NCBI RefSeq assembly: GCF_024223415.1
Contig: NZ_CP100501.1
DNA length: 64,000 nucleotides
Reading direction: 5' to 3' (one strand)
Source: Escherichia coli
GTDB taxonomy: Bacteria > Pseudomonadota > Gammaproteobacteria > Enterobacterales > Enterobacteriaceae
Shown one piece after another: positions 23,321 to 39,959 of the stretch (position 1 is its first letter; every line of letters begins with the position of its first letter). Below the pieces are notes generated by a model, which ran no database searches, was not told the origin of the DNA, and worked only from the letters and a program-made list of their open reading frames with translations. The position numbers and the translations under genes were made by a program.

Positions 23321-23672
23321 TTCTAATAACTGAATCCACACACAGTCAAATGTCATTGTTGTGACTAAAAAACGCTCAATTCTCTGAGAGTGTGGCTGTA
23401 TGCCTGCTGTGGACTGCTGTGTCCAGCTTATCCACAGCATTTTGTGCACGGTTCTGTGGACAAAATACCTGGTTACCCAGGCCGTGCCGGCACGTTAACC
23501 GGGCTGCATCCGATGCAAGTGTGTCGCTGTCGCCGGCCTTCTCACCCGGTCACGTTTCGTCGTTCCTCCTCCACGAGCTGCGGCTTCGGGGCCGCACCTG
23601 CATTCGTATGCGGTCGCCCGGTTACAGGTGCGGCACGGCCTGATGGAGGCCGCATGTGAGAGGAGAATTCCC

Positions 23673-24599
23673 ATGCCAAACTGGTGCTCAAATCGTATGT
23701 ATTTTTCTGGTGAACCGGCACAGATTGCTGAGATTAAACGACTGGCCAGCGGTGCAGTCACACCGTTTTATCGCCGCGCCACAAATGAAGGTATTCAGCT
23801 GTTTCTGGCCGGAAGTGCCGGACTTCTGCAGACCACTGAAGATGTGCGGTTTGAACCATGTCCCGGACTGACGGCTGCCGGACGTGGCGTTGTATCGCCG
23901 GAGAATATCGCGTTCACCCGCTGGCTGACATACCTGCAGGACGGTGTACTGCTGGATGAGCAAAACTGCCTGATGCTGCATGAACTCTGGCTGCAGAGCG
24001 GTACTGGACAGCGTCGCTGGGAAGGATTACCGGACGATGTCAGGGATACCATCACCGCACTTTTCACCGCAAAAAGAGGTGACTGGTGTGGCTTCTGGAG
24101 TAACGAAGATGTATCGGTGTGGTGGAACCGTCTGTGTGACAACGTACTGCCGGAAAAAACCATGCCGTTTGACCTGCTGACGGTTCTGCCCACCCGCCTG
24201 GATGTTGAAGTGAATGGCTTTAACGGTGGTGTTCTGAACGGTGTTCCTTCTGCATATCACTGGTATACGGAACGGTATGGCGTGAAGTGGCCTGTGGGGT
24301 ATGAGGTGAATATCAGTAATCAGGGAGACAACTTCATTAAGGTGGATTTCGACACGCCGTGGTGTCAGCCGGAAAGCGACGTTATTGCAGAATTAAGCCG
24401 CCGTTTCAGCTGCACGCTGGAGCACTGGTATGCCGAACAGGGCTGTGATTTCTGTGGCTGGCAGTTGTATGAGCGCGGAGAGCTCGTTGATGTGCTGTGG
24501 GGGGAACTGGAATGGTCTTCCCCGACAGATGACGATGAGCTGCCGGAAGTCACCGGACCTGCGTGGATAGTCGACAATGTGGCGCATTATGGCGGATGA
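23673..24599 (+). CDS. Hypothetical leading-region protein
   Basis: Start MPNWCSNRMYF at ATG 23673 with GAGAGGAG RBS; conserved-looking, function unknown. Confidence 0.6.
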   Translation: MPNWCSNRMYFSGEPAQIAEIKRLASGAVTPFYRRATNEGIQLFLAGSAGLLQTTEDVRFEPCPGLTAAGRGVVSPENIAFTRWLTYLQDGVLLDEQNCLMLHELWLQSGTGQRRWEGLPDDVRDTITALFTAKRGDWCGFWSNEDVSVWWNRLCDNVLPEKTMPFDLLTVLPTRLDVEVNGFNGGVLNGVPSAYHWYTERYGVKWPVGYEVNISNQGDNFIKVDFDTPWCQPESDVIAELSRRFSCTLEHWYAEQGCDFCGWQLYERGELVDVLWGELEWSSPTDDDELPEVTGPAWIVDNVAHYGG

Positions 24600-24981
24600 A
24601 GTATGACGGAGACGGGCGGGCAACTGCCCGTTTCTTTTCCGGTAAAGGATGTCGCCATGCTCCTCTTTTTACTGCGCCGGCTGACGCGGCGCGGCATAAA
24701 CGCTGCCTGTGGTCAGTGTCCCGCGTCCGGTGGGCACGGGACGGGCGCTTTTACCGCTCCCGGCTGGCGTCGGTGACAGTGTACGCCAGCCTGTCGCCCT
24801 TTTCTGATGAACGCCCTTCAAGCCGCTTTCGCGGCATAACCTTGCCGTCAAACAGACGACGGCTGCGGTATTCCACGGTCGGCCTGACCCGTTACCGGAC
24901 GCGGTGAACAGCCCACAGGCAGCGGGGAACGGGCACCACAGGGGTGCCCTCCCGGTGCCCCCTGTAAGAGAAGGAGCTGTT

Positions 24982-25665
24982 ATGTCCCGTTTTATCCTGG
25001 GTGACTGCGTGCGTGTTATGGCCACGATTCCTGATAACGCCATTGATTTCATATTAACCGATCCGCCATATCTCGTCGGTTTCCGTGACCGTTCCGGGCG
25101 CACCATTGCCGGTGACGTTAATGATGACTGGCTGCAACCGGCCTGTAATGAGATGTACCGCGTACTCAAAAAAGACGCGCTGATGGTCAGCTTCTACGGC
25201 TGGCACCGTATTGACCGCTTTATGGCGGCCTGGAAACGCGCCGGATTCAGCGTGGTTGGCCACCTGGTCTTCACCAAAAACTACACATCCAAATCTGCGT
25301 ATGTCGCGTACCGCCACGAATGCGCTTACATCCTGGCAAAGGGCAGTCCGGCCCGGCCCCGTAACCCGCTGCCGGATGTGCTGGGCTGGAAATATTCGGG
25401 CAACCGCCATCACCCGACGGAAAAGCCCGTTACCAGCCTGCAACCGCTGATTGAGAGCTTCACACATCCGAACGCGATTGTGCTGGATCCGTTTGCAGGC
25501 AGCGGTTCAACCTGCGTGGCCGCCCTTCAGTCCGGACGCCGGTATATCGGTATCGAGCTGCTTGAACAGTATCACCGTGCCGGACAGCAACGACTGGCCG
25601 CCGTGCAACGGGCCATGCAGCAGGGGGCCGCGAATGATAACTGGTTTATGCCGGAGGCTGCGTAA
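24982..25665 (+). CDS. Orphan DNA methyltransferase (N6-adenine/N4-cytosine class, beta-group order)
   Basis: DPPY motif near the N-terminus and FAGSGST near the C-terminus; start MSRFILGD with GAAGGAG RBS; no adjacent restriction gene. Confidence 0.85.
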   Translation: MSRFILGDCVRVMATIPDNAIDFILTDPPYLVGFRDRSGRTIAGDVNDDWLQPACNEMYRVLKKDALMVSFYGWHRIDRFMAAWKRAGFSVVGHLVFTKNYTSKSAYVAYRHECAYILAKGSPARPRNPLPDVLGWKYSGNRHHPTEKPVTSLQPLIESFTHPNAIVLDPFAGSGSTCVAALQSGRRYIGIELLEQYHRAGQQRLAAVQRAMQQGAANDNWFMPEAA

Positions 25666-25887
25666 ATGAACTATGCCGGACACGAAAAACTTCGCGCCGA
25701 CGTGGCGGAGGTGGCCAATGCCATGTGCGACCTGCGTACAACCATGAATGAGATGGAGCGGCGGTACAGCTTTAATGCTGACACCCTGCCGGAACGTCTG
25801 GTGCGTCAGACGTTGTTTCGCGCAAACCGCCTCCTGATGGAGGCATATACCGAAATTCTGGAACTGGATTCCTGCTTCAAAGATTGA
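25666..25887 (+). CDS. Hypothetical small protein
   Basis: 73-aa ORF tightly packed after the methyltransferase. Confidence 0.5.
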   Translation: MNYAGHEKLRADVAEVANAMCDLRTTMNEMERRYSFNADTLPERLVRQTLFRANRLLMEAYTEILELDSCFKD

Positions 25888-25900
25888 GAAGGAGACGAGA

Positions 25901-26335
25901 ATGTACGGAACATGCGAAACGCTATGCCGGGCGCTGGCAGCAAAGTATCCGGGAGATACGCCGCTGATGCTGGTTATCTGGTCCCCGGAAGAAATTCAGG
26001 CCCTCGCTGACGGAATGGATATTTCCCTGTCCGATCATGAAATCAGGACTGTCCTGGCGCGGCTGGCGGACATCCCGGAAGACCAGCGGACTGAGTCCGG
26101 TATTTCTTCCGGCGTGGCGATGGAGATTATCAGCAACGTGAGCGAAAACCGCCAGGTGACCGTCCCGGCTGAACTGCTGGCGTCCCTGATTCAGACCGCC
26201 GAACAGGCACTGTGGAAACGTGAATGGGCCGCCCGTGATTACGGCCTCGCCGTCCCGGAATGCGTCACCCGCCGTCAGGCGGTGGTTAATCAGGCCCGCA
26301 TCCTGCTGAAAAACAACCCACACGAAAACGACTGA
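25901..26335 (+). CDS. Hypothetical leading-region protein
   Basis: 144-aa ORF; shares a ...R.VTVPA.LL... block with the ORF at 28037..28456. Confidence 0.55.
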   Translation: MYGTCETLCRALAAKYPGDTPLMLVIWSPEEIQALADGMDISLSDHEIRTVLARLADIPEDQRTESGISSGVAMEIISNVSENRQVTVPAELLASLIQTAEQALWKREWAARDYGLAVPECVTRRQAVVNQARILLKNNPHEND

Positions 26336-26379
26336 TGTTATCGCCGCCTTCGGGCGGCGATTCAGGGAGACCATGAATC

Positions 26380-27150
26380 ATGAACAAAACGCTGAATGCA
26401 CTGGTTTGTCACCACGCCCGTAACCTGCTGCTGGCGCAGGGCTGGCCGGAAGAGACGGATGTTGACCAGCGTAACCCGAAGTATCCGGGCTGGATCAGCA
26501 TTTATGTTCTGCTGGATGCGCCCCGGCTGGCGACGTTACTTATCAACCGTCACGGCGGCGTACTGCCGCCGCTCCTGGCCTCCGCCATTCACAAACTGAC
26601 CGGAACCGGGGCGGAAGTTGTACTGTCCGGCAGTCAGTGGCAGTCGCTGCCGGTACTTCCGGCAGACGGAACGCAGGTGTCTTTCCCGTATGCCGGAGAA
26701 TGGCTGACCGAAGACGAAATCAGGGCAGTTCTTGATGCAGTGCGCGATGCGGTACGCAGTGTCAGTTGCCGGGTGACAGAAGATGCGCGGCGTATCAGGG
26801 CGGCGCTGACCACAACCGGTCAGACGTTGCTGACCCGCCAGACGCGGCGCTTTCGCCTGGTTGTGAAGGAAAGCGATCACCCCTGCTGGCTCGATGAAGA
26901 CGACGAAAACCTGCCCGTGGTGCTCGATGCCATCCTGAACCGGGGCGCTCGTTTTTCTTCGGTGGAAATGTATCTGGTCAGTGAGTGTGTGGAGCATATC
27001 CTGTCCAGTGGGCTGGCCTGCGATGTGCTGCGTATACCGGATGAACCGCCCCGCCGGTGGTTTGACCGTGGTGTTCTGCGGGAGGTGGTCCGGGAAGCCC
27101 GGGCCGAAATCCGCAGCATGGCGGATGCCCTGGCAAAAATCCGGAAATGA
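26380..27150 (+). CDS. Hypothetical leading-region protein
   Basis: 256-aa ORF with RBS. Confidence 0.55.
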
Positions 27151-27217
27151 TGACGCTGGCGGGGAAAAATCTCCGCCTTTTCCAGCCGGTCCCCGGAAAG
27201 AGCAAAAGGATGTCGCC

Positions 27218-27548
27218 GCAGGCTCCGCTTTACTCGGCCATGCGGGGCATGGCCTTGTGGGTTTTCAGTTATGTGGCCTCAGCGTCGTGTGCGGGCTGTG
27301 CCGTGCCTCCATCGTAGCCGGGCTTCTGCGGGCGGGTTGCAAGGTAAGGTGAACCGCTGCGGTCACCCGGTCCCTCCTTCCCGTCTGCCGTGATTTTCCG
27401 GTCGTTCACCCGCTCAGATTTCGCGGTCTCACCCTCCAACTCCCGCCAGCCGTGTGCGTCAGGCTGCGGCTTCCCTTGCGCCCTTGCAACCCTGCAGGCC
27501 CGGCAAAGATGGAGGCACGGCACCGCCCGGTGTCGCGGAATATGTGAA
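27218..27548 (+). repeat. Leading-region repeat family A, copy 1 (single-strand promoter-like)
   Basis: About 330 bp, near-identical by eye to 34139..34478; ends about 17 bp before the klcA start. Confidence 0.6.
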
Positions 27549-27564
27549 CAACGGAGGAAATCCC

Positions 27565-27990
27565 ATGCAGTATGCGAAACCTGTCACCCTGAACGTTGAA
27601 GAGTGCGACCGCCTTTCTTTTCTGCCTTACCTGTTTGGCAACGATTTTCTGTATGCCGAGGCGTATGTGTACGCGCTGGCGCAAAAAATGATGCCGGAAT
27701 ATCAGGGAGGCTTCTGGCATTTCATCCGCCTGCCGGACGGTGGCGGTTACATGATGCCGGATGGCGACCGTTTTCATCTGGTCAACGGTGAAAACTGGTT
27801 TGACCGCACTGTGAGTGCTGATGCCGCAGGCATCATTGTTACGTCTCTTGTGATTAACCGCCAGTTGTGGCTGTACCACGACAGCGGGGATGCGGGACTG
27901 ACACACCTGTACCGGATGCGTGATGCGCAGTTGTGGCGTCACATCGAATTTCACCCCGAATGCAACGCGATTTACGCGGCACTGGACTGA
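27565..27990 (+). CDS. klcA: Antirestriction protein KlcA/ArdB family
   Basis: MQYAKPVTLNVEECDRLSFLPYLFGNDFLYAE... with GGAGGA RBS. Confidence 0.85.
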   Translation: MQYAKPVTLNVEECDRLSFLPYLFGNDFLYAEAYVYALAQKMMPEYQGGFWHFIRLPDGGGYMMPDGDRFHLVNGENWFDRTVSADAAGIIVTSLVINRQLWLYHDSGDAGLTHLYRMRDAQLWRHIEFHPECNAIYAALD

Positions 27991-28036
27991 TTAACGGACG
28001 GGGCGGCAATGCCGCCCCTGTAAAGGAGACGAGAAC

Positions 28037-28456
28037 ATGTACTGTACTGTTAAAGAAATTATCCGCGAAGTGCTGAATACAGACGTGCCGGACAGTGAAT
28101 GTGTTTTTGCCGTGGTGCTGACCCGCGGGGATGTGCGCCACATAGCCCGGGACTGGAACCTGTCAGACGATGAGCTGGAAACCGTCATGCAGCGGCTGGA
28201 CGATGCTTTTGTATATGGCGCATGTGACAGAGTTGTTTCCGATATTGTCAATGAACTGATGGAGGAAAAGCGCGTAAACCGTCTTGTAACAGTTCCTGCG
28301 GTGCTGCTGGAAAAAGTGATGGTGATGGCTGGTAGTGAAATTTATCGCCTCCATGCTGTAGGGAGCGAGAACGGGGGCGACGGTGACGCATTTGTCAGGG
28401 AAGAACGTGAGATTATGCGGGTAATGCGTCAGGCGCTGGACGGGGAGAACGGGTAA
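28037..28456 (+). CDS. Hypothetical leading-region protein
   Basis: 139-aa ORF, paralog-like to 25901..26335. Confidence 0.55.
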   Translation: MYCTVKEIIREVLNTDVPDSECVFAVVLTRGDVRHIARDWNLSDDELETVMQRLDDAFVYGACDRVVSDIVNELMEEKRVNRLVTVPAVLLEKVMVMAGSEIYRLHAVGSENGGDGDAFVREEREIMRVMRQALDGENG

Positions 28457-28647
28457 TGAATATCAGCACGGAAACCCGCGAAATTCTGCGTAATTACAGG
28501 GCCGTGATTAATGCGCGGCGTCGTGAAATGGGGCAGAAACCGCTCACCACCGCGCAGATTGTTGATGAAATCTGTGATTTTGTGGCGAATCAGCAGGCGG
28601 TTTTCCTCGGTGGTCACTATATCCTTCAGGGCAGCAGGCACAGGTGA
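28456..28647 (+). CDS. Hypothetical small protein
   Basis: 63-aa ORF overlapping the upstream stop. Confidence 0.4.
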   Translation: MNISTETREILRNYRAVINARRREMGQKPLTTAQIVDEICDFVANQQAVFLGGHYILQGSRHR

Positions 28648-28832
28648 TACAGGGGCAGGCGGTGGAGGCCGCCTGTCAGCCCGCGCGAAAACCCCTGGCA
28701 GGCTGGCGCCTGCCGGAAGGGATGCGGGCCACGCTGGCGCGTCGCCCGTTACCCTTCCTGTTGGTGACAGGCGTTGTTTCAGGAAGTACCTGTTACAGAC
28801 CTGTCGTTAAAGAACCTTCTTACACATGCGCC

Positions 28833-29395
28833 CCTTCGGCTCCCGGCTGCCTGGCGGCATCCGGTCGTCAGGCCCGACTCCGACAGGCAGCTGCTGGCGC
28901 ACCCGCCAGTCTCCGCCGAACCCGCTGGCGCGGTTTCGGGCTGTCGCTACGGTCCGATGCGTGAAAACCCGGGCTTGCAGCGACCGTTCCGGTCGCGCCG
29001 CCTCTGTCGCGCCGTGACCTGCGCTCCCTGCACACCTGACGGTGTGTGAGGAAACTGCGCCTGATGGCGCAGCAGTCCTCCCTCCTGCCGCCACCTCTGC
29101 GGCCTGTTTCCCGCTGTGGACTTTCCGGGGGGCAGACGTAACCCCCTCCCGTTCCATCTGTCCAGGGTGAGATGCACCGGCCACAAAATTTTTAGCCATG
29201 AACCCGGCAAAAAATTTTGCGTCCGCCCCCGGACAGCTGCCCCGTGAGGCGGTAAACGGGCCCCCATCGGAAAGGTCCACTGCGGGGAGAAACCCCTGTG
29301 AAGTGGACGGCAGGAGGAGCTTTCGCTCCTCTGAAGGGGCACATGAACGTCCCGTCGCCGGTATCCGGTTTATCTCACATCTTTCAGTCAGGAGG
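28833..29395 (+). repeat. Leading-region repeat family B, copy 1 (single-strand promoter-like), upstream of ssb
   Basis: About 560 bp GC-rich block, highly similar by eye to 35179..35720 and, over its 3' about 360 bp, to 38229..38585. Confidence 0.6.
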
Positions 29396-29400
29396 TTCTT

Positions 29401-29922
29401 ATGAGTGCACGTGGTATCAACAAGGTCATCCTCGTCGGGCGTCTGGGCAATGATCCGGAAGTCTGTTACATCCCCAACGGGGGCGCAGTGGCAAACCTGC
29501 AGGTCGCCACGTCAGAAAGCTGGCGCGACAAACAGACGGGGGAGATGCGGGAGCAGACGGAATGGCACCGCGTGGTGCTGTTCGGCAAGCTCGCGGAAGT
29601 GGCTGGTGAATATCTGCGCAAGGGCGCGCAGGTCTACATCGAGGGGCAACTCCGTACCCGTAGCTGGGAGGATAACGGTATCACCCGTTACGTCACTGAA
29701 ATTCTTGTTAAGACCACGGGCACCATGCAGATGCTGGGGAGTGCACCACAGCAGAACGCTCAGGCGCAACCGAAGCCTCAGCAGAATGGGCAGCCACAGA
29801 GTGCTGACGCGACGAAAAAAGGTGGCGCGAAAACGAAAGGCCGTGGACGTAAGGCCGCGCAGCCGGAGCCTCAGCAGCCGTCTGAACCCGCGTATGACTT
29901 CGATGACGACATTCCGTTCTAA
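29401..29922 (+). CDS. ssb: Single-stranded DNA-binding protein
   Basis: [21 protein letters not shown]... OB-fold N-terminus, acidic C-terminal tail DFDDDIPF. Confidence 0.95.
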
Positions 29923-29950
29923 CGAAAGACAGTGACAACCGCCCCGTCCA

Positions 29951-30211
29951 GTGCGGGGCATCACCGGAGAGATGAGGATGAGCGAATATTTCAGAATACT
30001 TCAGGGACTGCCTGACGGTCCTTTTACCCGCAAACATGCCGAAGCCGTTGCCGCACAGTACCGGAATGTCTTTATCGAGGATGATCAGGGAACGCATTTT
30101 CGCCTGGTTGTCCGCAATAACAGTGGCCTGGTCTGGCGTACCTGGAATTTTGAGGACGGTGCCGGGTACTGGATGAACCATGCCATCCGTGATTTCGGCA
30201 TTCTTAAGTAA
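29951..30211 (+). CDS. Hypothetical small protein
   Basis: 86-aa ORF between ssb and the ParB-like gene. Confidence 0.5.
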
Positions 30212-30274
30212 GAGAGGTGCCGGACGGGAACGCGTCCGGCAGACATACAACCATCCCGGTCAAAGGAGAAATAT

Positions 30275-32233
30275 ATGTCAGTTACAGAGTCTAAGACAAA
30301 AACGGAGCGTAAATCCAGCCGTAAACCTGCAAAAACGCAGGAAACCGTCCTGTCAGCCCTGCTGGCGCAGACGGAGGAAGTGAGCGTGCCGCTGGCCTCG
30401 CTGATTAAATCACCGCTGAATGTGCGCACGGTGCCGTATTCTGCGGAGTCTGTCAGCGAACTGGCGGACTCCATTAAAGGTGTCGGCCTGTTACAGAATC
30501 TGGTTGTTCATGCCCTGCCAGGTGACCGTTACGGTGTCGCCGCAGGCGGTCGCCGACTGGCTGCACTCAACATGCTGGCAGAGCGTGGCATCCTTACGGC
30601 TGACTGGCCTGTACGCGTGAAGGTTATTCCGCAGGAGCTGGCGACTGCCGCATCAATGACTGAAAACGGTCATCGTCGGGATATGCACCCTGCTGAACAG
30701 ATCGCCGGATTCCGCGCAATGGCGCAGGAAGGCAAAACACCTGAGCAGACTGGCGACCTGCTGGGCTATTCACCCCGCCACGTCCAGCGAATGCTGAAAC
30801 TGGCAGACCTTGCACCCGTCATCCTTGATGCGCTGGCAGAAGACCGCATCACCACCGAACACTGTCAGGCGCTGGCGCTGGAGAACGACACCGCGCGTCA
30901 GGTGCAGGTGTTTGAAGCCGCCTGCCAGTCAGGATGGGGCGGTAAACCGGATGTGCGGGTTATCCGCAACCTGATTACCGAAAGTGAAGTGGCGGTGGCG
31001 GGGAACAGTAAATTCCGCTTCGTGGGGGCTGATGCCTTCTCGCCAGACGAACTGCGCACCGATTTGTTCAGCGATGACGGGGACGGTTATGTCGACCGCG
31101 TGGCGCTCGATGCCGCCCTGCTGGAAAAACTCCAGGCTGTCGCTGAACACCTTCGGGAAGCCGAAGGCTGGGAATGGTGCGCCGGGCGCATGGAGCCTGT
31201 CGGTGAGTGCCGTGAGGATGCCGGAACATACCGCTGTCTGCCGGAGCCGGAAGCGGTGCTGACGGAGGCGGAATACGAACGCCTGAACGAACTGATGACG
31301 CGTTACGACGCGCTGGAAAACCAGTGTGAGGAATCCGACCTGCTGGAAGCAGAAATGAAGCTGATGCGCTGCATGGCGAAGGTCAGAGCGTGGACGCCGG
31401 AGATACGTGCCGGAAGCGGTGTGGTGGTGTCCTGGCGTTATGGCAACGTATGTGTCCAGCGTGGTGTGCAGTTGCGCAGTGAAGATGACGCGACTGACGA
31501 CGCTGACCGCACGGAACAGGTGCAGGAGAAAGCGTCAGTGGAGGAAATCAGCCTGCCGTTGCTGACGAAAATGTCCTCAGAGCGCACGCTGGCAGTCCAG
31601 GCGGCACTCATGCAGCAGCCGGACAAATCCCTGACACTGCTGGCATGGACGCTCTGCCTGAATGTGTTTGGCAGCGGGGCGTACAGTAAACCAGCACAAA
31701 TCAGCCTGGAATGTGAACATTATTCGCTGACCAGCGATGCGCCATCGGGGAAGGAAGGTGCCGCATTCATGGCGCTGATGGCAGAAAAATCCCGTCTTGC
31801 AGCCCTGCTGCCGGAGGGATGGTCACGGGACATGACGACATTCCTGTCCCTCAGTCAGGAGGTGCTGTTATCCCTGCTCAGTTTCTGCACCGCATGCAGC
31901 CTTAACGGTGTCCAGACCCGTGAGTGTGGTCACACGTCACGCAGTCCGCTTGACTCGCTGGAAATCGCTATCGGATTCCACATGCGCGACTGGTGGCAGC
32001 CGACAAAAGCAAACTTCTTCGGACACCTGAAAAAGCCACAAATTATCGCAGCCCTGAATGAGGCCGGACTGTCCGGTGCCGCACGGGACGCGGAGAAGAT
32101 GAAGAAAGGTGATGCGGCTGAACATGCAGAGCACCATATGAAAGACAACCGCTGGGTTCCAGGCTGGATGTGTGCACCACATCCACAGACAGATGCCACT
32201 GAACGCACCGATAACCTGGCTGATGCCGCCTGA
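30275..32233 (+). CDS. ParB/Srx-like nuclease-domain protein of the leading region
   Basis: 652-aa ORF; N-terminal ParB-type block (...LQNLVVHALPGDRYGVAAGGRRLAAL...). Confidence 0.8.
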   Translation: MSVTESKTKTERKSSRKPAKTQETVLSALLAQTEEVSVPLASLIKSPLNVRTVPYSAESVSELADSIKGVGLLQNLVVHALPGDRYGVAAGGRRLAALNMLAERGILTADWPVRVKVIPQELATAASMTENGHRRDMHPAEQIAGFRAMAQEGKTPEQTGDLLGYSPRHVQRMLKLADLAPVILDALAEDRITTEHCQALALENDTARQVQVFEAACQSGWGGKPDVRVIRNLITESEVAVAGNSKFRFVGADAFSPDELRTDLFSDDGDGYVDRVALDAALLEKLQAVAEHLREAEGWEWCAGRMEPVGECREDAGTYRCLPEPEAVLTEAEYERLNELMTRYDALENQCEESDLLEAEMKLMRCMAKVRAWTPEIRAGSGVVVSWRYGNVCVQRGVQLRSEDDATDDADRTEQVQEKASVEEISLPLLTKMSSERTLAVQAALMQQPDKSLTLLAWTLCLNVFGSGAYSKPAQISLECEHYSLTSDAPSGKEGAAFMALMAEKSRLAALLPEGWSRDMTTFLSLSQEVLLSLLSFCTACSLNGVQTRECGHTSRSPLDSLEIAIGFHMRDWWQPTKANFFGHLKKPQIIAALNEAGLSGAARDAEKMKKGDAAEHAEHHMKDNRWVPGWMCAPHPQTDATERTDNLADAA

Positions 32234-32284
32234 TGAACAACCACACCGCCCCGCCGGAGACGGGGCGGCAGCAAGGGAGATACC

Positions 32285-32722
32285 GTGATGAAAACTGAAC
32301 TGACCCTGAATGCCCTGCAGTCCATGAACGCACAGGAATATGAAGATATCCGTGCTGCGGGAAGCGATATGCGCCGTAATCTCACTCACGAGGTGATGCG
32401 TGAAGTGGACGCACCGGCTAACTGGATGATGAATGGCGAGTATGGCAGTGAGTTCGGGGGCTTTTTCCCCGTCCAGGTTCGTTTCACGCCAGCCCACGAA
32501 CGTTTCCACCTGGCATTATGTTCGCCGGGAGACGTCTCTCAGCTCTGGATGCTGGTTCTGGTGAGTGGTGGTGGACAGCCTTTCGCCGTCGTTCAGGTGC
32601 AACATATCTTCACGCCTGTCGCGATCAGTCACACGCTGGCGCTCGCCGCGACACTTGATGCGCAGGGATACAGTGTTAACGACATCATTCATATTTTGAT
32701 GGCAGAAGGAGGTCAGGCATGA
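32285..32722 (+). CDS. psiB: Plasmid SOS inhibition protein B
   Basis: [28 protein letters not shown]...; upstream of and overlapping psiA. Confidence 0.9.
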
Positions 32723-33438
32723 GCGCACGTTCACGGGCACTGATCCCCCTCAGCGCAGAACAACAGGCCGCTATGCAGGCTGTGGCTGTCACCGAACAAC
32801 GTCGTCGTCAGGGACGCACACTTTCAGCATGGCCTTATGCCACCGCTTTCTTTCGCTGCCTGAATGGCAGTCGCCGGATTTCGCTGACCGATCTCCGCTT
32901 TTTTGCCCCTGCGCTGACGAAGGAGGAATTTCATGGCAACCGTCTCCTGTGGCTGGCTGCAGTGGACAAACTGATTGAAAGTTTTGGTGAAGTCTGTGTT
33001 CTTCCCCTGCCATCCGATGCGGGGCATCGTTTGTTCCCGTCCGTTCCTTTTCGTGAAGGTGAGCGGCGTCGTCAGAAAACCACGCTGACAGAGCAGAAAT
33101 ACAGCCGCCAGCGGGAACGTGAGGCAGAACGACGGGAACGGGAATACCAGACATGTTTTGCTCAGGCGCAGATTGACCTTGCGTTTCATACTCCCGCCAC
33201 GGTCGGAAGCTGGTTGTCCCGCTGGTCTGGTGTTGTTGAGGAGCATGATCTGGAAACGATTTTCTGGGGGTGGTGCGGGCGTTTTCCATCACTGTCATCA
33301 TTTGACCGGTTTTTCTGGCAGGAGGAACCACTCTGGCGGTTGATTTTTGAAGCCGGTGAGGCCGGTCGTGGTGCACCGGTACAGGTACGTGCACTTGAGC
33401 AGTGGATGATCCCGAACAAGCTGGAGAACGTAATATGA
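32719..33438 (+). CDS. psiA: Plasmid SOS inhibition protein A
   Basis: 239-aa [25 protein letters not shown]... Confidence 0.9.
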
Positions 33439-34031
33439 TGAAATCAGACGAAAAATACCAGGTTCCCGCGTGGATGCGACCTCTGTTGCCGTTGCTCTGC
33501 AACACCGGGGAGAACGATCCGGAAGAACTGCTGAATGATACAGAAACCACTGCCAGTGCGAATGTTGTCCGTTATGTGCTGATAGTTGCTGTGCGGTCGC
33601 AGGTTGATCTGCTGCAGCTTCTGTACAGGAAAGGGCTGTTGCGCACAGAGATACCAGGTGGCTTTTCACCGGAAGAAGCGCAGGAACTCCTGGATAATCT
33701 GGTGCGCAGCCATATCAGCAGGGCGCTGTCGGGTGAGCGAATGGCAGCCCGTGACAGGAATGCCGATCTGGCCTGGATTCGACAGCAACTGGTCGATGCC
33801 GCCTGGTTTGTCCGTGCCACACTGGAAGCGCATGGGATGAGCGTCGGAAATGAGAGTCCCCCTGCTCAGCCGGAGACAATGCCGGACATACAGACACGGG
33901 AACTGGTGATGTTGATCAAGCGACTGGCATCATCGCTGAAAGCGGTGAAACCGGACAGTTGTGTGGTGCGTGAAGCGCAGGACTGGCTGCGCGACAGAAA
34001 ACTTGTGAGCATCACGGATGTTCTTCGGTGA
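33435..34031 (+). CDS. Hypothetical leading-region protein
   Basis: Start MMKSDEKYQ; overlaps the psiA stop. Confidence 0.55.
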   Translation: MMKSDEKYQVPAWMRPLLPLLCNTGENDPEELLNDTETTASANVVRYVLIVAVRSQVDLLQLLYRKGLLRTEIPGGFSPEEAQELLDNLVRSHISRALSGERMAARDRNADLAWIRQQLVDAAWFVRATLEAHGMSVGNESPPAQPETMPDIQTRELVMLIKRLASSLKAVKPDSCVVREAQDWLRDRKLVSITDVLR

Positions 34032-34138
34032 ACCAGTGGAGGTATGCTTGAGGAGCAGGGACATGCCGGTCATGATCGTTTCGTTCCAGGGGTGGTCTGG
34101 AGATCATGCGGCGTGTCCTCTGCACTCGCCGGAATAAG

Positions 34139-34478
34139 GACGTCGCCGCCGGCTCCGCTTTTACCCGGCCATGCGGGGCATGGCCTTGTGGGTTTTCAGC
34201 TCTGTGGCCTCAGCGTCGTGTGCGGGCTGTGCCGTGCCTCCATCGTAGCCGGGCTTCTGCGGGCGGGATGCAAGGTAAGATGAACCGCTGCGGTCACCCG
34301 GTCCCTCCTTCCCGTCTGCCGTGATTTTCCGGTCGTTCACCCGCTCAGATTTCGCGGTCTCACCCTCCAACTCCCGTCAGCCGTGCGCGTCGGGCTGCGG
34401 CTTTCCTTGCGCCCTTGCATCCCTGCAGGCCCGGCAAAGATGGAGGCACGGCACCGCCCGGTGTCGCAGAACATGTGA
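34139..34478 (+). repeat. Leading-region repeat family A, copy 2, upstream of ardA
   Basis: Near-identical by eye to 27218..27548. Confidence 0.6.
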
Positions 34479-34495
34479 CTATGGAGGATTCGGGA

Positions 34496-34996
34496 ATGTC
34501 TGTTGTTGCACCTGCTGTATACGTTGGAACCTGGCACAAATATAACTGCGGAAGCATCGCCGGCCGCTGGTTTGACCTGACCACGTTTGATGATGAACGC
34601 GATTTTTTCGCCGCCTGCCGTGCCCTTCACCAGGATGAAACCGATCCGGAACTGATGTTTCAGGATTATGAGGGTTTCCCGGGGAATATGGCCTCTGAAT
34701 GTCATATCAACTGGGCCTGGGTTGAAGGCTTCCGCCGGGCACGGGATGAAGGCTGCGAAGAGGCTTATCGTCTCTGGGTGGATGATACCGGTGAGACGGA
34801 TTTTGACAGCTTCCGCGATGCCTGGTGGGGCGAGGCTGACAGTGAGGAGGCTTTTGCGGTTGAGTTCGTCAGTGATACCGGCCTGCTGGCTGACGTGCCG
34901 GAGACGGTGGCGCTCTATTTTGACTATGAGGCGTATGCGCGGGATTTATTCCTGGACTCCTTCACCTTTATTGACGGTCATGTGTTCCGTCGGTGA
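34496..34996 (+). CDS. ardA: Antirestriction protein ArdA
   Basis: MSVVAPAVYVGTWHKYNCGSIAGRWFDLTTFDDERDFF..., strongly acidic 166-aa protein; GGAGGA RBS. Confidence 0.9.
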   Translation: MSVVAPAVYVGTWHKYNCGSIAGRWFDLTTFDDERDFFAACRALHQDETDPELMFQDYEGFPGNMASECHINWAWVEGFRRARDEGCEEAYRLWVDDTGETDFDSFRDAWWGEADSEEAFAVEFVSDTGLLADVPETVALYFDYEAYARDLFLDSFTFIDGHVFRR

Positions 34997-35178
34997 TTTA
35001 CTCCCCCGCTCCGGCGGGGGTATGGCCTGCCGGGCCGCCGGAAAACCCTGGCAGGCTTACGCCTGCCTGAAATACAGGAGGGCCGCGCCTGCGGCGCTGC
35101 CCTTCCTGCCCGTCATGGTGTGAGGCATTTTTCTGTTTTGTCGTTTCTGTTGTTCTGATGCCCGGAGGCGGGGACACC

Positions 35179-35720
35179 CTTCGGCTCCCGGCTGCCTGGC
35201 GGCATCCGGTCGTCGGCCCGACTCCGACAGGCAGCTGCTGGCGCACCCGCCAGTCTCCGCCGAACCCGCTGGCGCGGTTTCGGGCTGCCGCTACGGTCCG
35301 ATGTCTGAAAAACCAGGCCTGCAGCGACCGTTCCGGTCGCGCCGCCCCTGTCGCGCCGGAAACGGCGCTCCCTGCACACCTGACGGTGTGTAAGGCCACT
35401 GCGCCTGATGGCGCAGTCAACCCTTCCGCCGCCACCCCTGCGGCCTGTTTCCCGCTGTGGACTTTCCGGGGGCTGAAGCGGCCACAACACGGGGCAGCCG
35501 TCCAGGGGAGAGATGTACCAGCCACAAAACTTTTTGCCGCAGGCGTCAAAAACTTTTGCGTCTGCCCCCGGACAACTGCCCCGTGCCGTGGCAGTCGCTG
35601 CCCCATCGGAAAGGTCCACTGCGGGGAGAAACCCCGAAGAAGTGGACGGCAGAAGGGGCTTTCGCCCCTCCGGGGGAGCAACCGGTCGGCCCGGCGACCT
35701 GATTCAGCAGAAGGAGACGT
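35179..35720 (+). repeat. Leading-region repeat family B, copy 2
   Basis: Similar by eye to 28833..29395; immediately upstream of the ORF at 35725. Confidence 0.6.
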
Positions 35721-35724
35721 TTTC

Positions 35725-36159
35725 ATGACAGTCAGCAGCACGATTTCCGTTTTTTGCCGAGACGGGGTGTTCCGTACCGTTTACTGCCACCTGCACGGTG
35801 AGCCGACCTGGAACGGTCGCATCCTGCATACCCACTATGCCACCGGTCAGCTGGCCGAAGCCCTGGTTGAACACGGAGATATCCGTTGCCTCGGTCCCCG
35901 TTGCGACAAACCCGCCGGGCATACGCTTCAGAACCCGGTGGACGGTGTGACGGCTTATTACGGACGTGACAGTGGTTTCCGGATGGACAGTGAGGCGCGT
36001 GAGTACCGTTCTTTCAGGGAGGCTATTGCCACTGAAAGCACTGAAGAGGTGCGCTTCCATTATGTGTTCATCGACGGCTACTGGAAGGTGATGTACCGCA
36101 CGCCGGAAGGCTGGAAGATGAAAGCGCTCGCGCTGGCACTGCGTCGCTGTCCGGAATGA
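35725..36159 (+). CDS. Hypothetical leading-region protein
   Basis: Start MTVSSTISVF at ATG 35725 with GAAGGAGA RBS; 144 aa, Cys/His-containing. Confidence 0.6.
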   Translation: MTVSSTISVFCRDGVFRTVYCHLHGEPTWNGRILHTHYATGQLAEALVEHGDIRCLGPRCDKPAGHTLQNPVDGVTAYYGRDSGFRMDSEAREYRSFREAIATESTEEVRFHYVFIDGYWKVMYRTPEGWKMKALALALRRCPE

Positions 36160-36250
36160 AAAAAAGCAGGGCGATAAACCCTGCCTCTCTCCGCCGCTGC
36201 TTCCCGGCCAGGAAGAGCGGCAGTCATCAACAACATAAGGAGAAATATTT

Positions 36251-36517
36251 GTGAGACCATCAATTATCTTCGCAACCGCCGAGTATGTAAAGCGTCTGCG
36301 TGAAGAGTGCCTGCGGGAGAATAAACCCCTGCACCGCCATACCCGCTTCAGACGTCAGGAGCTGGCACAGGATGAGATTAACCCGGACGTCCTGGCGATG
36401 AGCGGTCATATCGCCAGACGCTGCAGTGAGCAGAAGCGGGTGCGTATCCCCGCCATGAAAGTCAGCGAATGGGGCCACCTGCTCCGCGCGCTTGAAATTG
36501 AACGGGTCTGTCACTGA
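36251..36517 (+). CDS. Hypothetical small protein
   Basis: 88-aa ORF from GTG with AAGGAG RBS. Confidence 0.4.
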   Translation: MRPSIIFATAEYVKRLREECLRENKPLHRHTRFRRQELAQDEINPDVLAMSGHIARRCSEQKRVRIPAMKVSEWGHLLRALEIERVCH

Positions 36518-36581
36518 TTAACCCTTGCCGTCTGCCTGTGCAGGCGGCAGGATACGTTCAGACATCTCACCAGGAGGAACC

Positions 36582-37460
36582 GTGAGTAAGAAGAAAAACA
36601 CCACAACGCCCACGCCGCATGATGCCGCGTTCCGGTCGTTCCTGGCGAATCCCGACGTTGCCAGGGATTTTCTGGAGTTGCATCTTCCTGCGGAGTACCG
36701 GCAGTTGTGCGACCTGTCCACCCTGAAGCTGGAACCCGCCACCTTTGTTGAGCCGGACCTGCATCAGTACGCCAGCGATATCCTCTGGAGTGTGAAAACC
36801 ACCGGGGGTGAAGACGGCTATGTTTATACGCTCATCGAGCACCAGAGCACCGAAAATCTGTACATGCCTTTTCGCATGTTACGTTACAGTGTGGCGGCGA
36901 TGCAGAGACATCTGGAGCAGCACAAAACGTTGCCACTGGTCATTCCGGTGCTGTTCTATCACGGTGAGCGCAGCCCGTACCCGTACAGCATGAACTGGCT
37001 GGACTGTTTTGAGAATCCGGCACTTGCGGCTAAAATATACACAAAGCCGTTTCCGCTGGTTGATATCACTGTCGTTGATGACAATGAAATCATGAACCAT
37101 CGCCGGATGGCCGCACTGACGCTGCTGATGAAGCATATCCGCCATCGTGACATGATGGAGCTGCTGGACAAACTCCCGCAGGTCATGGTGGAAATTTCAG
37201 ACGAGCAGGTGCGTGTTCTGATTCATTACATCGTTAACGCAGGGGACACTGTATCACCGGAATTTATGCGGGCGCTGGCCGAGCGCCTGCCGCAGCATGA
37301 GGATAAACTGATGACAATCGCAGAACGTCTTGAGCAGAAAGGTGCGCTTGAAAAAGCCCTGGCCATTGCGCGTCAGCTTCAGAAAATGGGGATGACACCT
37401 GAGCAGATTAAGCAGGCCACCGGACTTTCCGAAGCTGAACTGAAAAAAGTCATTCACTGA
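36582..37460 (+). CDS. Rpn-family (YhgA-like, PD-(D/E)XK) recombination-promoting nuclease
   Basis: Start GTG 36582 after AGGAGGA; MSKKKNTTTPTPHDAAFRSFLANPDVARDFLELHLP... is the hallmark Rpn N-terminus. Confidence 0.85.
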   Translation: MSKKKNTTTPTPHDAAFRSFLANPDVARDFLELHLPAEYRQLCDLSTLKLEPATFVEPDLHQYASDILWSVKTTGGEDGYVYTLIEHQSTENLYMPFRMLRYSVAAMQRHLEQHKTLPLVIPVLFYHGERSPYPYSMNWLDCFENPALAAKIYTKPFPLVDITVVDDNEIMNHRRMAALTLLMKHIRHRDMMELLDKLPQVMVEISDEQVRVLIHYIVNAGDTVSPEFMRALAERLPQHEDKLMTIAERLEQKGALEKALAIARQLQKMGMTPEQIKQATGLSEAELKKVIH

Positions 37461-37521
37461 TGAGAGCATCACAGCCCGGCAAAATGCCGGGCTTTTTGCC
37501 AGCAGGAGCAGAGCAAACAGC

Positions 37522-37728
37522 ATGACGATTGCAGAACGTCTTATACAGAAAGGTTTCGACGAGGGTTTTAAAGAAGGTTTTAAAGAAGGTTTTAAACAAG
37601 GAGCTCTTGAAGTGGCGCGGGAAATAGCCTGCCGGCTTCGGGATATAGGCTGGTCGCCGGAACGGATTCAGGAGGTCACGGGACTTTCCGGTGAAGAACT
37701 GAAAAAGCTGTTTCCTGATGAGCAGTAG
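37522..37728 (+). CDS. Stand-alone small protein resembling the Rpn C-terminal tail domain, with (EGFK)3 repeat
   Basis: MTIAERLIQKG...GWSPERIQEVTGLSGEELKK parallels the Rpn C-terminus MTIAERLEQKG...GMTPEQIKQATGLSEAELKK. Confidence 0.55.
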   Translation: MTIAERLIQKGFDEGFKEGFKEGFKQGALEVAREIACRLRDIGWSPERIQEVTGLSGEELKKLFPDEQ

Positions 37729-37758
37729 CCTGGCATTCAGCCAGGCTGTGAATCACGC

Positions 37759-38010
37759 TCACACATCCTCTGCCGTTTCCCCCAGTTCATTTTCCAGTCG
37801 CCTGATGATATCTGCCTTACGCATCCCCTGCATGTGAGGCAGCAGGTCACGGACTGAAAGTGCCTGGGTGGTCCTCCAGACGGTGACGTCCACCTGTTCC
37901 GCATTTTCCCAGGCGTGCCATGTTCTCTGCGTCACGCCAAATTCTCTGGCCGCTTTTTCGCGTGACCAGAGCATGCTTTTTCGCCAGATTCGCAGTTCCC
38001 ATCCGGTCAT
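37759..38010 (-). CDS. Small putative HTH DNA-binding protein
   Basis: 83-aa ORF on the opposite strand to its neighbours. Confidence 0.45.
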   Translation of the reverse strand: MTGWELRIWRKSMLWSREKAAREFGVTQRTWHAWENAEQVDVTVWRTTQALSVRDLLPHMQGMRKADIIRRLENELGETAEDV

Positions 38011-38228
38011 AAAACACCTTTGAAAAAGTGAAAAAACTTCACTTTATTTTATCATCACAATTGCCAAATCAGCGCGATAAATAAGTGTAAAAAAGTGAAG
38101 AAATTTCACTTTTTTTGGTTGTAAATGTCGTGCGGTTTTCTCTGTTTTCACCTGTGCGGGAGTGGTGTGCCAGTGACCACCACATGCCATTGTTGTGCCG
38201 TCGTTTTTCTTCAGTCGCGCCGGATGCG

Positions 38229-38585
38229 GCGCTCCCTGCACACCTTACGGTGTGTAAGGCCACTGCGCCTGATGGCGCAGCTGCCTCTGCCTGTCTGCCG
38301 CCGCACTGCGGCCTGTTCTCCGCAGACGGACTTTCCGGGGGTACATACACGACCACATCCCGTTTCAGTCGTCCAGGGGAGAGATGTACCAGCCACAAAA
38401 CTTTTTGCCGCAGGCGTCAAAAACTTTTGCGTCTGCCCCCGGACAACTGCCCCGTGACGTGGTGAGCGTCCCCCGTCGGAAAGGTCCACTGCGGGGAAAT
38501 CCCCGAAGACCCGGACGGCAGAAGGAGCTTCGCTCCTCCGGGAAATGACCTGGCTGACCCGGCAGTCGTGACGATGAGGAGACAA
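38229..38585 (+). repeat. Leading-region repeat family B, copy 3 (shorter), upstream of the ORF at 38587
   Basis: Similar by eye to the 3' about 360 bp of the other B copies. Confidence 0.55.
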
Positions 38586-38586
38586 T

Positions 38587-39438: not shown

Positions 39439-39523
39439 TTAAACAGAAAAGCCCTGGTATTTATGCCGGGGCTTTTTTTTCTGTAATCATCATAATCTCA
39501 GAACACGATGTGACATTGTCACA

Positions 39524-39865
39524 TCAATTGTTGTTCATATCGATGCCATCTTTCCTGCCTGAATCTGTCTTTTTAGGTGCTGTTTTAGAGGAAGAACGGC
39601 GGGATGTTTTTTTCGATTCTGCTTCCCGAATAATGTCACGAAGTGCCTTCTCTCCTACTTCATACCCTGCATTTTTGAGCGTGTCACGAATATCTGCCAG
39701 TGTATAACCCTTTGTCCTTACCAGGACAATAATGTCATCACGAATGGCATCAAGAAAATCACGCAATGTTTTCCGTTGAGCGGTGAGATCTGGCAATTCC
39801 GATAAAGCAGCTTTTGCCAGCTGGATGTCATCATCTGAGTAAAATTTTTTAGAAGCCATTGGCAC
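39524..39865 (-). CDS. Hypothetical protein adjacent to oriT (basic C-terminal tail)
   Basis: 113-aa ORF; C-terminal KKTSRRSSSKTAPKKTDSGRK. Confidence 0.5.
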   Translation of the reverse strand: MPMASKKFYSDDDIQLAKAALSELPDLTAQRKTLRDFLDAIRDDIIVLVRTKGYTLADIRDTLKNAGYEVGEKALRDIIREAESKKTSRRSSSKTAPKKTDSGRKDGIDMNNN

Positions 39866-39959
39866 TTTCTCTCCGTTTAATCTTGAAGCCTGATTTTATC
39901 ATCAAAAACTGACTCCTGGCAGGGCTGCGCCCTGCCTCTGCCGTCTGCATAAGACTATG

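Follow-up and report, generated by a model that had tools for sequence, protein, structure and literature searches.

Two near-identical repeats upstream of klcA/ardB and ardA as predicted class 2 single-stranded DNA promoters in an IncI1-type leading region

Genes and repeats at the locus

The analysed stretch of Escherichia coli DNA (64,000 nucleotides of contig NZ_CP100501.1, hereafter the window) carries two antirestriction genes on the + strand, each preceded by one copy of a repeat designated family A (Table 1). The upstream gene is of the klcA/ardB type and is the first gene of an operon proposed to be driven by copy 1. In addition to its Pfam match it matches phrog_10132 (anti-restriction), and the RefSeq annotation of a close relative agrees. 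The second gene is ardA, which is proposed to be driven by copy 2.

The first-pass annotation of this DNA described two near-identical copies, which is borne out. A repeat search of the window delimited a core of 300 nt (27229-27528 and 34160-34459) with an identity of 97%, and due to this length and identity the repeat is real and chance is excluded. Comparison of the whole units with blastn yielded 94.9% identity over 354 nt. Aligning the copies with MAFFT, a check suggested by the same annotation, confirmed the repeat and gave the same limits as blastn. The copies had been described as ending 15-20 bp before the start codons; the gap from copy end to ATG was read as 17 nt for copy 1 (ATG at 27565) and 18 nt for copy 2 (ATG at 34496). 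The spacing between the copies is 6.9 kb.

Relatives of copy 1 were found in at least 5,000 plasmid records (the best 5,000, all with at least 80% identity), and identity was at least 95% in 1,340 of these best 5,000. One plasmid record was listed with four 'places', while its locus has only the two usual gaps, before klcA and at the ardA position; the remaining two places are attributed to arm-to-arm matches. An Rfam scan of 24000-41000 (E ≤ 1) gave no match in either copy.

The window represents an IncI1-type leading region and the transferred strand is the minus strand. The window is collinear with IncI1-type plasmids, among them pESBL, and the nick motif ACATCCTG/T (slash at the nick) is located on the minus strand at 40001-40006. 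The ssi1-3 sequences of ColIb-P9, which are numbered from the nick end, match the minus strand with identities of 99.4, 89.3 and 99.4%. For F, the end-capture primers of a recent preprint show the nascent strand to be of + sense (bioRxiv 10.64898/2026.01.09.698686). A sliding-window fold of the leading region featured six strong hairpins, which coincide with the six published promoter positions.

Table 1 Location of the repeats, genes, hairpins and predicted promoter elements in the window
Feature	Position	Strand	Evidence
Family A copy 1, whole repeat unit, 5' of klcA/ardB-type gene	27206..27558	.	blastn and alignments
Family A copy 2, whole repeat unit, 5' of ardA	34136..34488	.	repeat search, MAFFT, blastn
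klcA/ardB-type antirestriction gene	27565..27990	+	Pfam PF03230 Antirestrict, E = 9.6e-27
ardA antirestriction gene	34496..34996	+	Pfam PF07275, E = 5.9e-30; phrog_2059
Copy 1 main hairpin, transferred strand, predicted class 2 / ssp2-type single-strand promoter	27292..27529	-	DNA fold, outer pair 27529/27292
Copy 1 -35-like TTGCAA, non-template arm, paired with 27484-27489	27337..27342	-	sequence and duplex view
Copy 1 -10-like TACGAT, non-template arm	27311..27316	-	duplex view; family-wide -10 pairing profile
Copy 1 template-arm complement TTGCAA-N15-AAAGAT, poor promoter when double-stranded	27484..27510	+	sequence; consensus scan
Copy 1 predicted transcription start, 7 nt beyond -10 box	27517	+	geometry
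Copy 2 main hairpin, transferred strand	34223..34460	-	fold and duplex view
Copy 2 -35 TTGCAT	34268-34273	-	fold and duplex view
Copy 2 -10 TACGAT	34242-34247	-	fold and duplex view
Copy 2 predicted transcription start	about 34448	+	
Small flanking hairpin GGCCATGC-GGG-GCATGGCC followed by TTGTGGGTTTTCAG, inside copy 1 repeat	27236..27268	+	terminator-like scan flags 27241-27259
Copy 2 counterpart, small flanking hairpin and T-rich tract	34167..34199	+	sequence, alignment
Family B (ColIb-P9 ssi1-3, class 1)	29004-29334, 35348-35672, 38212-38540	minus-strand match	sequence comparison with ssi1-3
Class 3 promoter	24621-25000	transferred strand	sliding-window fold

Hairpin structure and promoter boxes

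Folding of the transferred strand, which the first-pass annotation had recommended, revealed a hairpin of about 240 nt in each copy. For copy 1, the minus-strand DNA folds with -90.9 kcal/mol (z = -5.0), and the + strand folds well too (-87.2 kcal/mol, z = -4.0). The hairpin core alone accounts for -75.7 kcal/mol in copy 1 and -72.1 kcal/mol in copy 2. In 300-nt sliding windows, for which Wen et al. set a folding energy below -75 kcal/mol, the minima are -80.5 and -84.4 kcal/mol for copies 1 and 2 (window mean -43.7, sd 12.9).

The 3' arm of both hairpins carries TTGCAA/T-N20-TACGAT, with the -10 box opposite mismatches. Copies 1 and 2 differ by a compensatory T/A change at 27337 and 27489, and matches to the promoter-arm pattern were found in copy 2 at 34231-34254(-) and 34429-34452(+). 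When examined in the minimum-energy fold and the duplex view, the A between the T and C of TACGAT in copy 1 is paired on its own, both neighbours being unpaired. This key A of the box is thus paired in the minimum-energy fold, though mismatches flank it. On the + strand, a consensus scan found no sigma-70-type site in 26900-35800. Based on geometry, a start at 27517 would yield a leader of 48 nt with GGAGG ahead of the ATG at 27565.

In the window copies, the non-template arm has a spacer of 20 nt and the template arm one of 15 nt, which is the reverse of the family norm (15-16 / 19-20). Since this spacer is unusual, promoter strength could differ from that of other family members. The 20/15 variant was observed in five unique elements of the survey described below, including the window (the others being L014, L017, L024 and L103).

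A small flanking hairpin lies in the 5' part of each repeat (Table 1) and is conserved in alignments with pESBL and F. In + strand RNA it would be terminator-like and could insulate the module against read-through from upstream.

Survey of related hairpins in Enterobacterales

A degenerate arm pattern was scanned against one genome per species. About half of the matches came from GC-rich taxa and lacked a partner arm; they were dropped as chance matches. The resulting set comprises 86 related hairpins in Enterobacterales, 82 of which are unique.

Comparison of 27 relatives (median identity about 60%) showed compensatory changes in 25 of the 52 predicted pairs. Cells were paired in 94.6%, compared to 31-41% with the partners slid, and none of 500 shuffles reached the observed covariation score. 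The transferred strand is more stable than its complement in all 82 unique hairpins, and it has 67 G-T cells compared to 22 A-C cells. Consensus folding gives the two strands near equal energies (-27.9 and -27.4), so the strand bias rests on the energies of single sequences and on the wobble counts.

The motif TAnnnT occurs on one arm only in 85 of 86 elements, an asymmetry that is in part by construction, as the search pattern demanded TA..T on one arm. With elements oriented by this arm, a Shine-Dalgarno sequence and ATG follow 29-44 nt beyond the hairpin in 76 of 77 cases, whereas the other side has them in 19 of 83. A bubble is present at the -10 box: just 10-13% of the elements have pairs at positions -11 to -9, compared to 94-100% at the flanking positions.

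Classes of downstream genes were assigned with PHROGs and Pfam; NCBIfam features no models for ArdA, KlcA or DUF1281. The genes downstream of the 86 hairpins encode orphan methyltransferases (27), KlcA/ArdB (22), ArdA (21), DUF1281 (9) and other proteins (3). They are almost all anti-restriction genes, which broadly supports the earlier proposal of a module dedicated to antirestriction. The comparative data add a compact sequence signature by which further promoters of this type can be found, evidence for the fold from strand specificity and covariation, and a near-exclusive link to restriction-evasion genes.

Comparison with known single-stranded DNA promoters

In pESBL, hairpins 5' of klcA and ardA were described as 'class 2' ssDNA promoters, with induction seen by RNA-seq, and were set apart from class 1 (ssi1-3/Frpo) (Wen et al., NAR 2025, PMC12672017). 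Their transcription starts were mapped by 5'-RACE in transconjugants and are stated to match the predictions within the hairpin (PMC12672017). In plasmid F, the homologous element ssp2 is located 5' of yfgB. It is reported to act as a promoter and to stall complementary-strand synthesis at the stem base, independently of transcription and relieved by UvrD (bioRxiv 10.64898/2026.01.09.698686, preprint). Loss of ssp2 reduced transfer into restricting recipients, partly via lost yfgB expression (same preprint). We confirmed the position of ssp2 in F with the primers given there.

The hairpin core of the window copies is alignable with the pESBL klcA and ardA elements and with F ssp2, at 84-86% identity. 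The pESBL elements occupy the same loci in the IncI1 leading region, and the copies lie where the location rule for class 2 places such elements, immediately 5' of klcA/ardB and ardA with the transferred strand as template. The large transferred-strand hairpin, the loop, the GCCCGGCTAnnnT...GGCACGGC arms and the mismatched -10 box are all shared. The window copies are distinguishable by the stem between -35 and -10, which is rebuilt on both arms, with 4-5 additional nt on the non-template arm (20/15), compared to the template arm in pESBL and F (15/19). In addition, the -10 box is TACGAT instead of TAAGAT.

A clear homologue (78% over 360 nt) is the Frpo' 4 candidate (Samuel et al., Nature 2024, Supplementary Table 2), a computational candidate only, from an insect-gut metagenome, with a 15-nt (normal) non-template spacer and a TAAGAT -10 box. 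Near-identical plasmid copies of Frpo' 4 also sit upstream of an antirestriction gene.

Class 1 elements (F Frpo1/Frpo2 = ssp1a/b and ColIb-P9 ssi1-3) follow the same principle as family A, in that a transferred-strand hairpin rebuilds a sigma-70 promoter. They are active only when single-stranded and share the leading region and orientation. However, their sequences show no similarity to family A and they precede ssb/psiB-type operons. Family A showed no similarity to family B in blastn (E < 1e-3) and none to the F ssiD sequence in a sensitive blastn search. The ssi1-3 sequences match family B only, so homology does not place family A in class 1; the two families are distinct, as had been suggested. 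The class 3 promoter (ssp3, 5' of M.EcoGIX) likewise forms a large transferred-strand hairpin, upstream of an orphan methyltransferase, but lacks the class 2 arm signature even at ≤2 mismatches. Roadblock activity is reported to be absent from ssp3 (bioRxiv 10.64898/2026.01.09.698686, preprint).

Another candidate came from the IncN plasmid R46, in which modules repeat ahead of ardA, ardB and further genes of the leading region. In R46 and pKM101 these modules go by the name of CUP (conserved upstream) elements (Delver and Belogurov 1997). Family A was rejected as such an element after alignment of five R46 upstream regions, which showed no real homology. The R46 regions carry an obvious double-stranded TTGAC-type promoter, whereas family A has none.

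Based on homology to class 2 elements and on the transferred-strand hairpin with its boxes, we predict that the family A copies are very probably class 2 (ssp2-type) ssDNA promoters of an IncI1-type leading region. This is in line with the earlier suggestion of a shared, possibly single-strand-active promoter module. Class 2 elements at these loci are already known, and the value of the present assignment is confirmation.

Proposed mechanism

Homology, conserved structure, strand bias and position relative to the genes were shown in the present analysis. For homologues, other work has shown where transcription starts, that induction occurs in transconjugants and, in a preprint on F only, that the stem is a roadblock. 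The activity and exact starts of the window copies are inferred.

During conjugation, the minus strand would enter the recipient with its 5' end first, from the nick at about 40000. While it is single-stranded, each inverted repeat of about 240 nt would form a long hairpin, whose stem rebuilds a sigma-70 promoter with -35 TTGCAA/T and -10 TACGAT provided by the 3' arm as non-template strand. Mismatches lie opposite the -10 box in its upstream half, so this promoter would be partly pre-melted. Host RNA polymerase could then start near 27517 or 34448, read the 5' arm and continue on the single-stranded template beyond, so that mRNAs of the klcA operon and of ardA would be made before the complementary strand exists. 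Synthesis of that strand would abolish the hairpin, and expression would shut off, since the + strand of the resulting duplex offers only TTGCAA-N15-AAAGAT, which makes a poor promoter. Judging from its F homologue ssp2, the stem probably also halts synthesis of the complementary strand at the stem base, with release on unwinding by UvrD; the phase of expression from single-stranded DNA would thereby last longer. The predicted stall points are the stem bases at about 27291 (copy 1) and about 34222 (copy 2).

Alternative explanations

The hairpins could mainly be structural roadblocks or priming sites, with the spacer-swapped window copies having little promoter activity. F ssp2 is reported to stall synthesis at the stem base without need of transcription, class 1 elements were originally identified as single-strand initiation sites, and the 20/15 spacer is atypical. 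We nevertheless consider this very unlikely: -35, -10, bubble and distance to the ATG are all retained in the window copies, the spacer variant recurs among unique survey elements, and the 1,340 relatives with at least 95% identity among the best 5,000 plasmid records argue for selection. In F, moreover, the effect of ssp2 loss on transfer is exerted partly via yfgB expression.

It is highly improbable that the copies are a duplicated promoter with an operator palindrome, regulated in double-stranded form by a plasmid repressor like the IncN CUP elements. R46 does have repeated modules before ardA and ardB, and a dimeric regulator could bind a long inverted repeat, but the R46 regions align unconvincingly with family A and carry the TTGAC-type promoter, while the + strand is devoid of a sigma-70-type site (26900-35800). 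A stem of 240 nt, a conserved mismatch bubble at -10 and a bias of G-T over A-C in favour of one strand are also unexpected for an operator.

Just as improbable is a role of the hairpin as RNA, i.e. as terminator, processing site or attenuator in read-through from the upstream operon. The + strand folds stably too, and its terminator-like hairpin is located in the 5' part of the repeat. Against this, in all 82 hairpins the mRNA-complementary strand has the higher stability, and the wobble pairs favour it too (67 to 22); it also carries the conserved TAnnnT and TTGCAT boxes, whose geometry relative to the gene is fixed. The pESBL starts are reported to agree with promoter predictions inside the hairpin, meaning that the gene's own mRNA would lack most of it.

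Finally, a small mobile or palindromic repeat could have landed by chance upstream of two genes and left the copies as remnants, an origin which the first-pass annotation had set against its own proposal. This would fit two near-identical copies with 6.9 kb between them and the presence of related sequences in at least 5,000 plasmid records, but it found no support and has a negligible probability. Across 77 elements, the orientation is constant, as is the distance to the ATG downstream. Between plasmids, the flanks of both copies are orthologues locus by locus. Neither a transposase gene nor terminal repeats or target duplications were noticed, and Rfam gave no match.

Significance and wider relationships

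As class 2 promoters, the hairpins would provide the plasmid with anti-restriction proteins only minutes after it enters the cell, at a time when its DNA has yet to become double-stranded and open to restriction. The recent preprint states that such hairpins also keep the leading region single-stranded for longer (bioRxiv 10.64898/2026.01.09.698686). These effects contribute to the establishment of resistance plasmids in new hosts.

A wider reading, which we regard as tentative and on the whole doubtful when all its parts are taken jointly, is that the published class 2 promoters are the tip of a structurally conserved Enterobacterales superfamily of transferred-strand hairpins. Its members may share the arm signature GCCCGGCTAnnnT...GNCACGGC, the bubble spanning -11 to -9 and a spacer of unequal length on the two arms. 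They may be wired almost only to the restriction-evasion genes ArdA, KlcA/ArdB and orphan methyltransferase, and also to DUF1281. If this reading is true, the two full IncI1 copies would act as roadblocks one after the other, the spacer-swapped variant would adjust how strong the promoter or the roadblock is, and DUF1281 would be a candidate anti-restriction factor. A third, unreported member may be located upstream of the DUF1281 gene, at about 23400-23645, with counterparts in F and pESBL.

Family A repeats and their published relatives

In a repeat search of the window, family A was found as two direct repeats of 300 nt with 97% identity. Homology extends to 94.9% over 354 nt by blastn, and pairwise alignment reproduced these limits. 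The copies end 17 nt (copy 1, ATG at 27565) and 18 nt (copy 2, ATG at 34496) before the start codons of genes for a PF03230 Antirestrict (KlcA/ArdB-type) and a PF07275 ArdA protein (Pfam), as the first-pass annotation had described. In the 5' part of each repeat, a small GC hairpin is followed by TTGTGGGTTTT; both are also kept in pESBL and F (alignment). On the plus strand this arrangement is intrinsic-terminator-like and might shield each module from transcripts that read through from upstream.

Wen et al. (NAR 2025, PMC12672017) profiled the IncI1 plasmid pESBL in fresh transconjugants. Six leading-region operons were induced, with a large hairpin before each; the start sites of all six were mapped by 5' RACE. 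In their classification of ssDNA promoters, ssi1-3/Frpo are class 1, the hairpins 5' of klcA and ardA class 2 and the hairpin 5' of M.EcoGIX class 3; for classes 2 and 3 they report conservation in F. The F element was named ssp2 in a January 2026 preprint (bioRxiv 10.64898/2026.01.09.698686). According to the preprint, it drives yfgB, an ArdB homologue, and stalls complementary-strand synthesis at the stem base until resolved by UvrD, which leads to longer expression from other single-strand promoters and aids EcoKI evasion. A homologue was listed earlier as candidate Frpo' 4 (Samuel et al., Nature 2024).

Both pESBL elements and ssp2 align with the window copies over their whole length, with 84–86% identity over the hairpin core. 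Family A is real, and these class 2 homologues, with the modelled hairpin and its -35/-10 boxes, support its earlier reading as a shared, possibly single-strand-active promoter module, already described in December 2025. By homology with ssp2, family A probably also acts as a roadblock to complementary-strand synthesis. IncN CUP elements, our first guess, were rejected as unrelated on comparison with five R46 upstream regions, and Rfam gave no match to family A. Additions beyond the known class 2 are modest: a wider superfamily, -10 bubble statistics, a strand bias and a putative third, divergent hairpin upstream of a DUF1281 gene.

Features of the window discussed in the text
Feature	Position	Strand	Remarks
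Family A copy 1, repeat	27229-27528		homology 27206-27558
Family A copy 2, repeat	34160-34459		homology 34136-34488
GC hairpin and TTGTGGGTTTT	27236-27268, 34167-34199	plus	copies 1, 2
Copy 1 hairpin	27292-27529	minus
Mosaic hairpin cores	27314-27508, 34245-34439		copies 1, 2; window vs pESBL
Spacer "bulge swap", copy 1	27317-27336, 27490-27504
Spacer "bulge swap", copy 2	34248-34267, 34421-34435
A-GCCGCAGC motif, copy 1	27463-27472	minus	apical
GA-CGGG-GA motif, copy 1	27363-27372	minus	apical
Class-2-like hairpin (putative)	23400-23645	minus	upstream of DUF1281 gene 23697-24599
Its arm signature	23481-23504 (-), 23616-23639 (+)
Strong hairpin	24621-25000	minus	sliding fold
Strong hairpin	27221-27580	minus	sliding fold
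Strong hairpin	28621-29400	minus	sliding fold
Strong hairpin	34161-34520	minus	sliding fold
Strong hairpin	34961-35780	minus	sliding fold
Strong hairpin	38161-38580	minus	sliding fold
Family B, ColIb-P9 ssi3	29004-29334	minus	99.4% identity; upstream of ssb
Family B, ColIb-P9 ssi2	35348-35672	minus	89.3% identity; upstream of 435-nt ORF
Family B, ColIb-P9 ssi1	38212-38540	minus	99.4% identity; upstream of DUF4942 gene
oriT nick site (probable)	40001-40006	minus	just upstream of nikA

Transferred strand

The window is a leading region common to IncI-complex and IncF plasmids (megablast against plasmids). An annotated relative has the gene order DUF1281, methylase, ..., antirestriction gene, DUF1380, ..., ssb, parB-like, psiB, psiA, ..., ardA, ..., nikA, nikB, and the order in pESBL is that of the window. 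Several findings identify the minus strand as the one that is transferred and that serves all of these plus-strand genes as template. It carries ACATCCTG/T, which we take to be the RP4/R64-type nick region; ACATCCTG/TCCCG adjoins an inverted repeat and is probably the nick site of oriT. ColIb-P9 ssi1-3 sequences (AJ238399) match the minus strand, and the coordinates of this leading-region entry start counting at about window 40000. F is collinear with the window. There, the preprint's primers for capturing stalled nascent strands map to the plus strand on the upstream side of the hairpin, which means that nascent strands are of plus sense.

Fold and promoter elements

Folded as DNA, the transferred strand of copy 1 forms a long hairpin (-90.9 kcal/mol, z = -5.0). 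Its 3' (non-template) arm carries TTGCAA-N20-TACGAT, in which the T and C of the TACGAT box are without a pairing partner; the -35 box of copy 2 is TTGCAT. The only paired difference between the copies is a compensatory change within the -35 box (T/A at 27337 with A/T at 27489). The plus strand, complementary to the template arm, reads TTGCAA-N15-AAAGAT, the non-template arm thus having 5 extra nt between the boxes in this plasmid (20 vs 15). Sites of a spacer "bulge swap" are listed in the table. A consensus scan of plus-strand positions 26900-35800 found no sigma-70-type site. If transcription begins 7 nt downstream of the -10 box, the predicted starts lie near 27517 and 34448, with leaders of 48 nt that would include a Shine-Dalgarno sequence.

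Related hairpins in Enterobacterales

The arm pattern GCCCGGYTANNNTNNNGNCACGGC was scanned against one genome per species. An inverted partner arm lay 91–207 nt from the match in 53 loci, all from Enterobacterales (Enterobacter, Pantoea, Erwinia, Yersinia, Cedecea, Rahnella and others) except a few MAG or mislabelled contigs. With the window, F and pESBL added, the set comprised 86 hairpins (82 unique). For 27 long-type hairpins of about 60% median identity, RNAalifold predicted 52 pairs; compensatory double changes occur at 25 of these. On this structure 94.6% of cells pair, compared to 31–41% with partners slid by 1–3 columns; the covariation score was 0.337, against 0.069 at most for slid versions, and was reached by none of 500 shuffles. 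The apical motifs A-GCCGCAGC and GA-CGGG-GA (transferred strand) are invariant in these 27 hairpins, which is not explained by the promoter boxes.

The transferred strand was more stable than its complement in 82/82 hairpins (mean gap 7.6 kcal/mol), with 67 G-T against 22 A-C cells. Consensus folding energies are nearly equal between the strands, so that the evidence for the bias comes from single-sequence energies and wobble counts.

TAnnnT occurs on one arm only in 85/86 elements; its presence on one arm was demanded by the search pattern, its absence from the partner arm is the observation. When hairpins were oriented by this arm alone, a Shine-Dalgarno sequence and ATG followed 29–44 nt past the hairpin in 76/77, compared to 19/83 on the opposite side. 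Positions -11 to -9 show Watson-Crick pairing in only 10–13% of elements, the flanking stem in 94–100%. The usual spacer is 15–16 nt on the non-template and 19–20 nt on the template arm, the extra nucleotides lying on the template arm in 54/82 hairpins; the reversed type of the window (20 vs 15) is found in five unique elements, with the window counted among them.

The first gene after the 86 hairpins codes for a PRK13699/M.EcoGIX-type methyltransferase (27), KlcA/ArdB-type protein (22), ArdA (21), DUF1281 (9) or another protein (3). Based on these counts, the module is close to dedicated to restriction evasion, in line with the antirestriction function proposed before. In Enterobacter, Cedecea, Yersinia pestis, Pantoea, Rahnella and Erwinia, a class-2-type hairpin, not class 3, precedes the orphan methyltransferase (survey loci L010, L023, L044, L045, L057, L070, L096, L105, L108 and others). 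Two to three such hairpins often stand in a row before methylase, klcA, ardA and DUF1281 genes in other Enterobacterales.

Evolution of the two copies

Between the window and pESBL, 34/34 sites with a by-plasmid grouping fall inside the hairpin core. Grouping by locus is seen at 74 sites or gap columns, of which 73 fall outside. Core identity between copies is 97.1% in the window and 99.2% in pESBL, but about 84% between plasmids. Because cores are alike within a plasmid and flanks sort by locus, this sequence mosaic indicates gene conversion, or joint replacement, of cores within a plasmid.

Other hairpins of the window

When the whole window was folded in sliding segments of 300 nt (minus-strand mean -43.7, sd 12.9 kcal/mol), six strong hairpins stood out in the leading region. 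Three overlap family B, the second repeat family, which corresponds to ssi1-3 and consists of class 1 promoters; blastn found no similarity between the families, and their separation in the first-pass annotation holds. The hairpin at 24621-25000 (-105.8 kcal/mol, z = -5.7) lies immediately 5' of a gene for an orphan methyltransferase of the PRK13699 family (24982-25665). It is the counterpart of the published class 3 promoter and does not have the class 2 arm signature.

The hairpin upstream of the DUF1281 gene (-79.9 kcal/mol, z = -4.75) carries TTGCAT-N15-TAACGT, with AC within an internal loop, and its arm signature was found again in F and pESBL. Judged by sequence and fold, it may represent a third, divergent class-2-like element beside the two family A copies. 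It resembles the low-certainty Frpo*1/*3 candidates of Samuel et al.; Wen et al. (PMC12672017) report six induced operons only and make no mention of it.

Two more segments, 7881-8240 and 9341-9800, had folding energies under -75 kcal/mol in the sliding 300-nt fold, the latter being equally stable on both strands.
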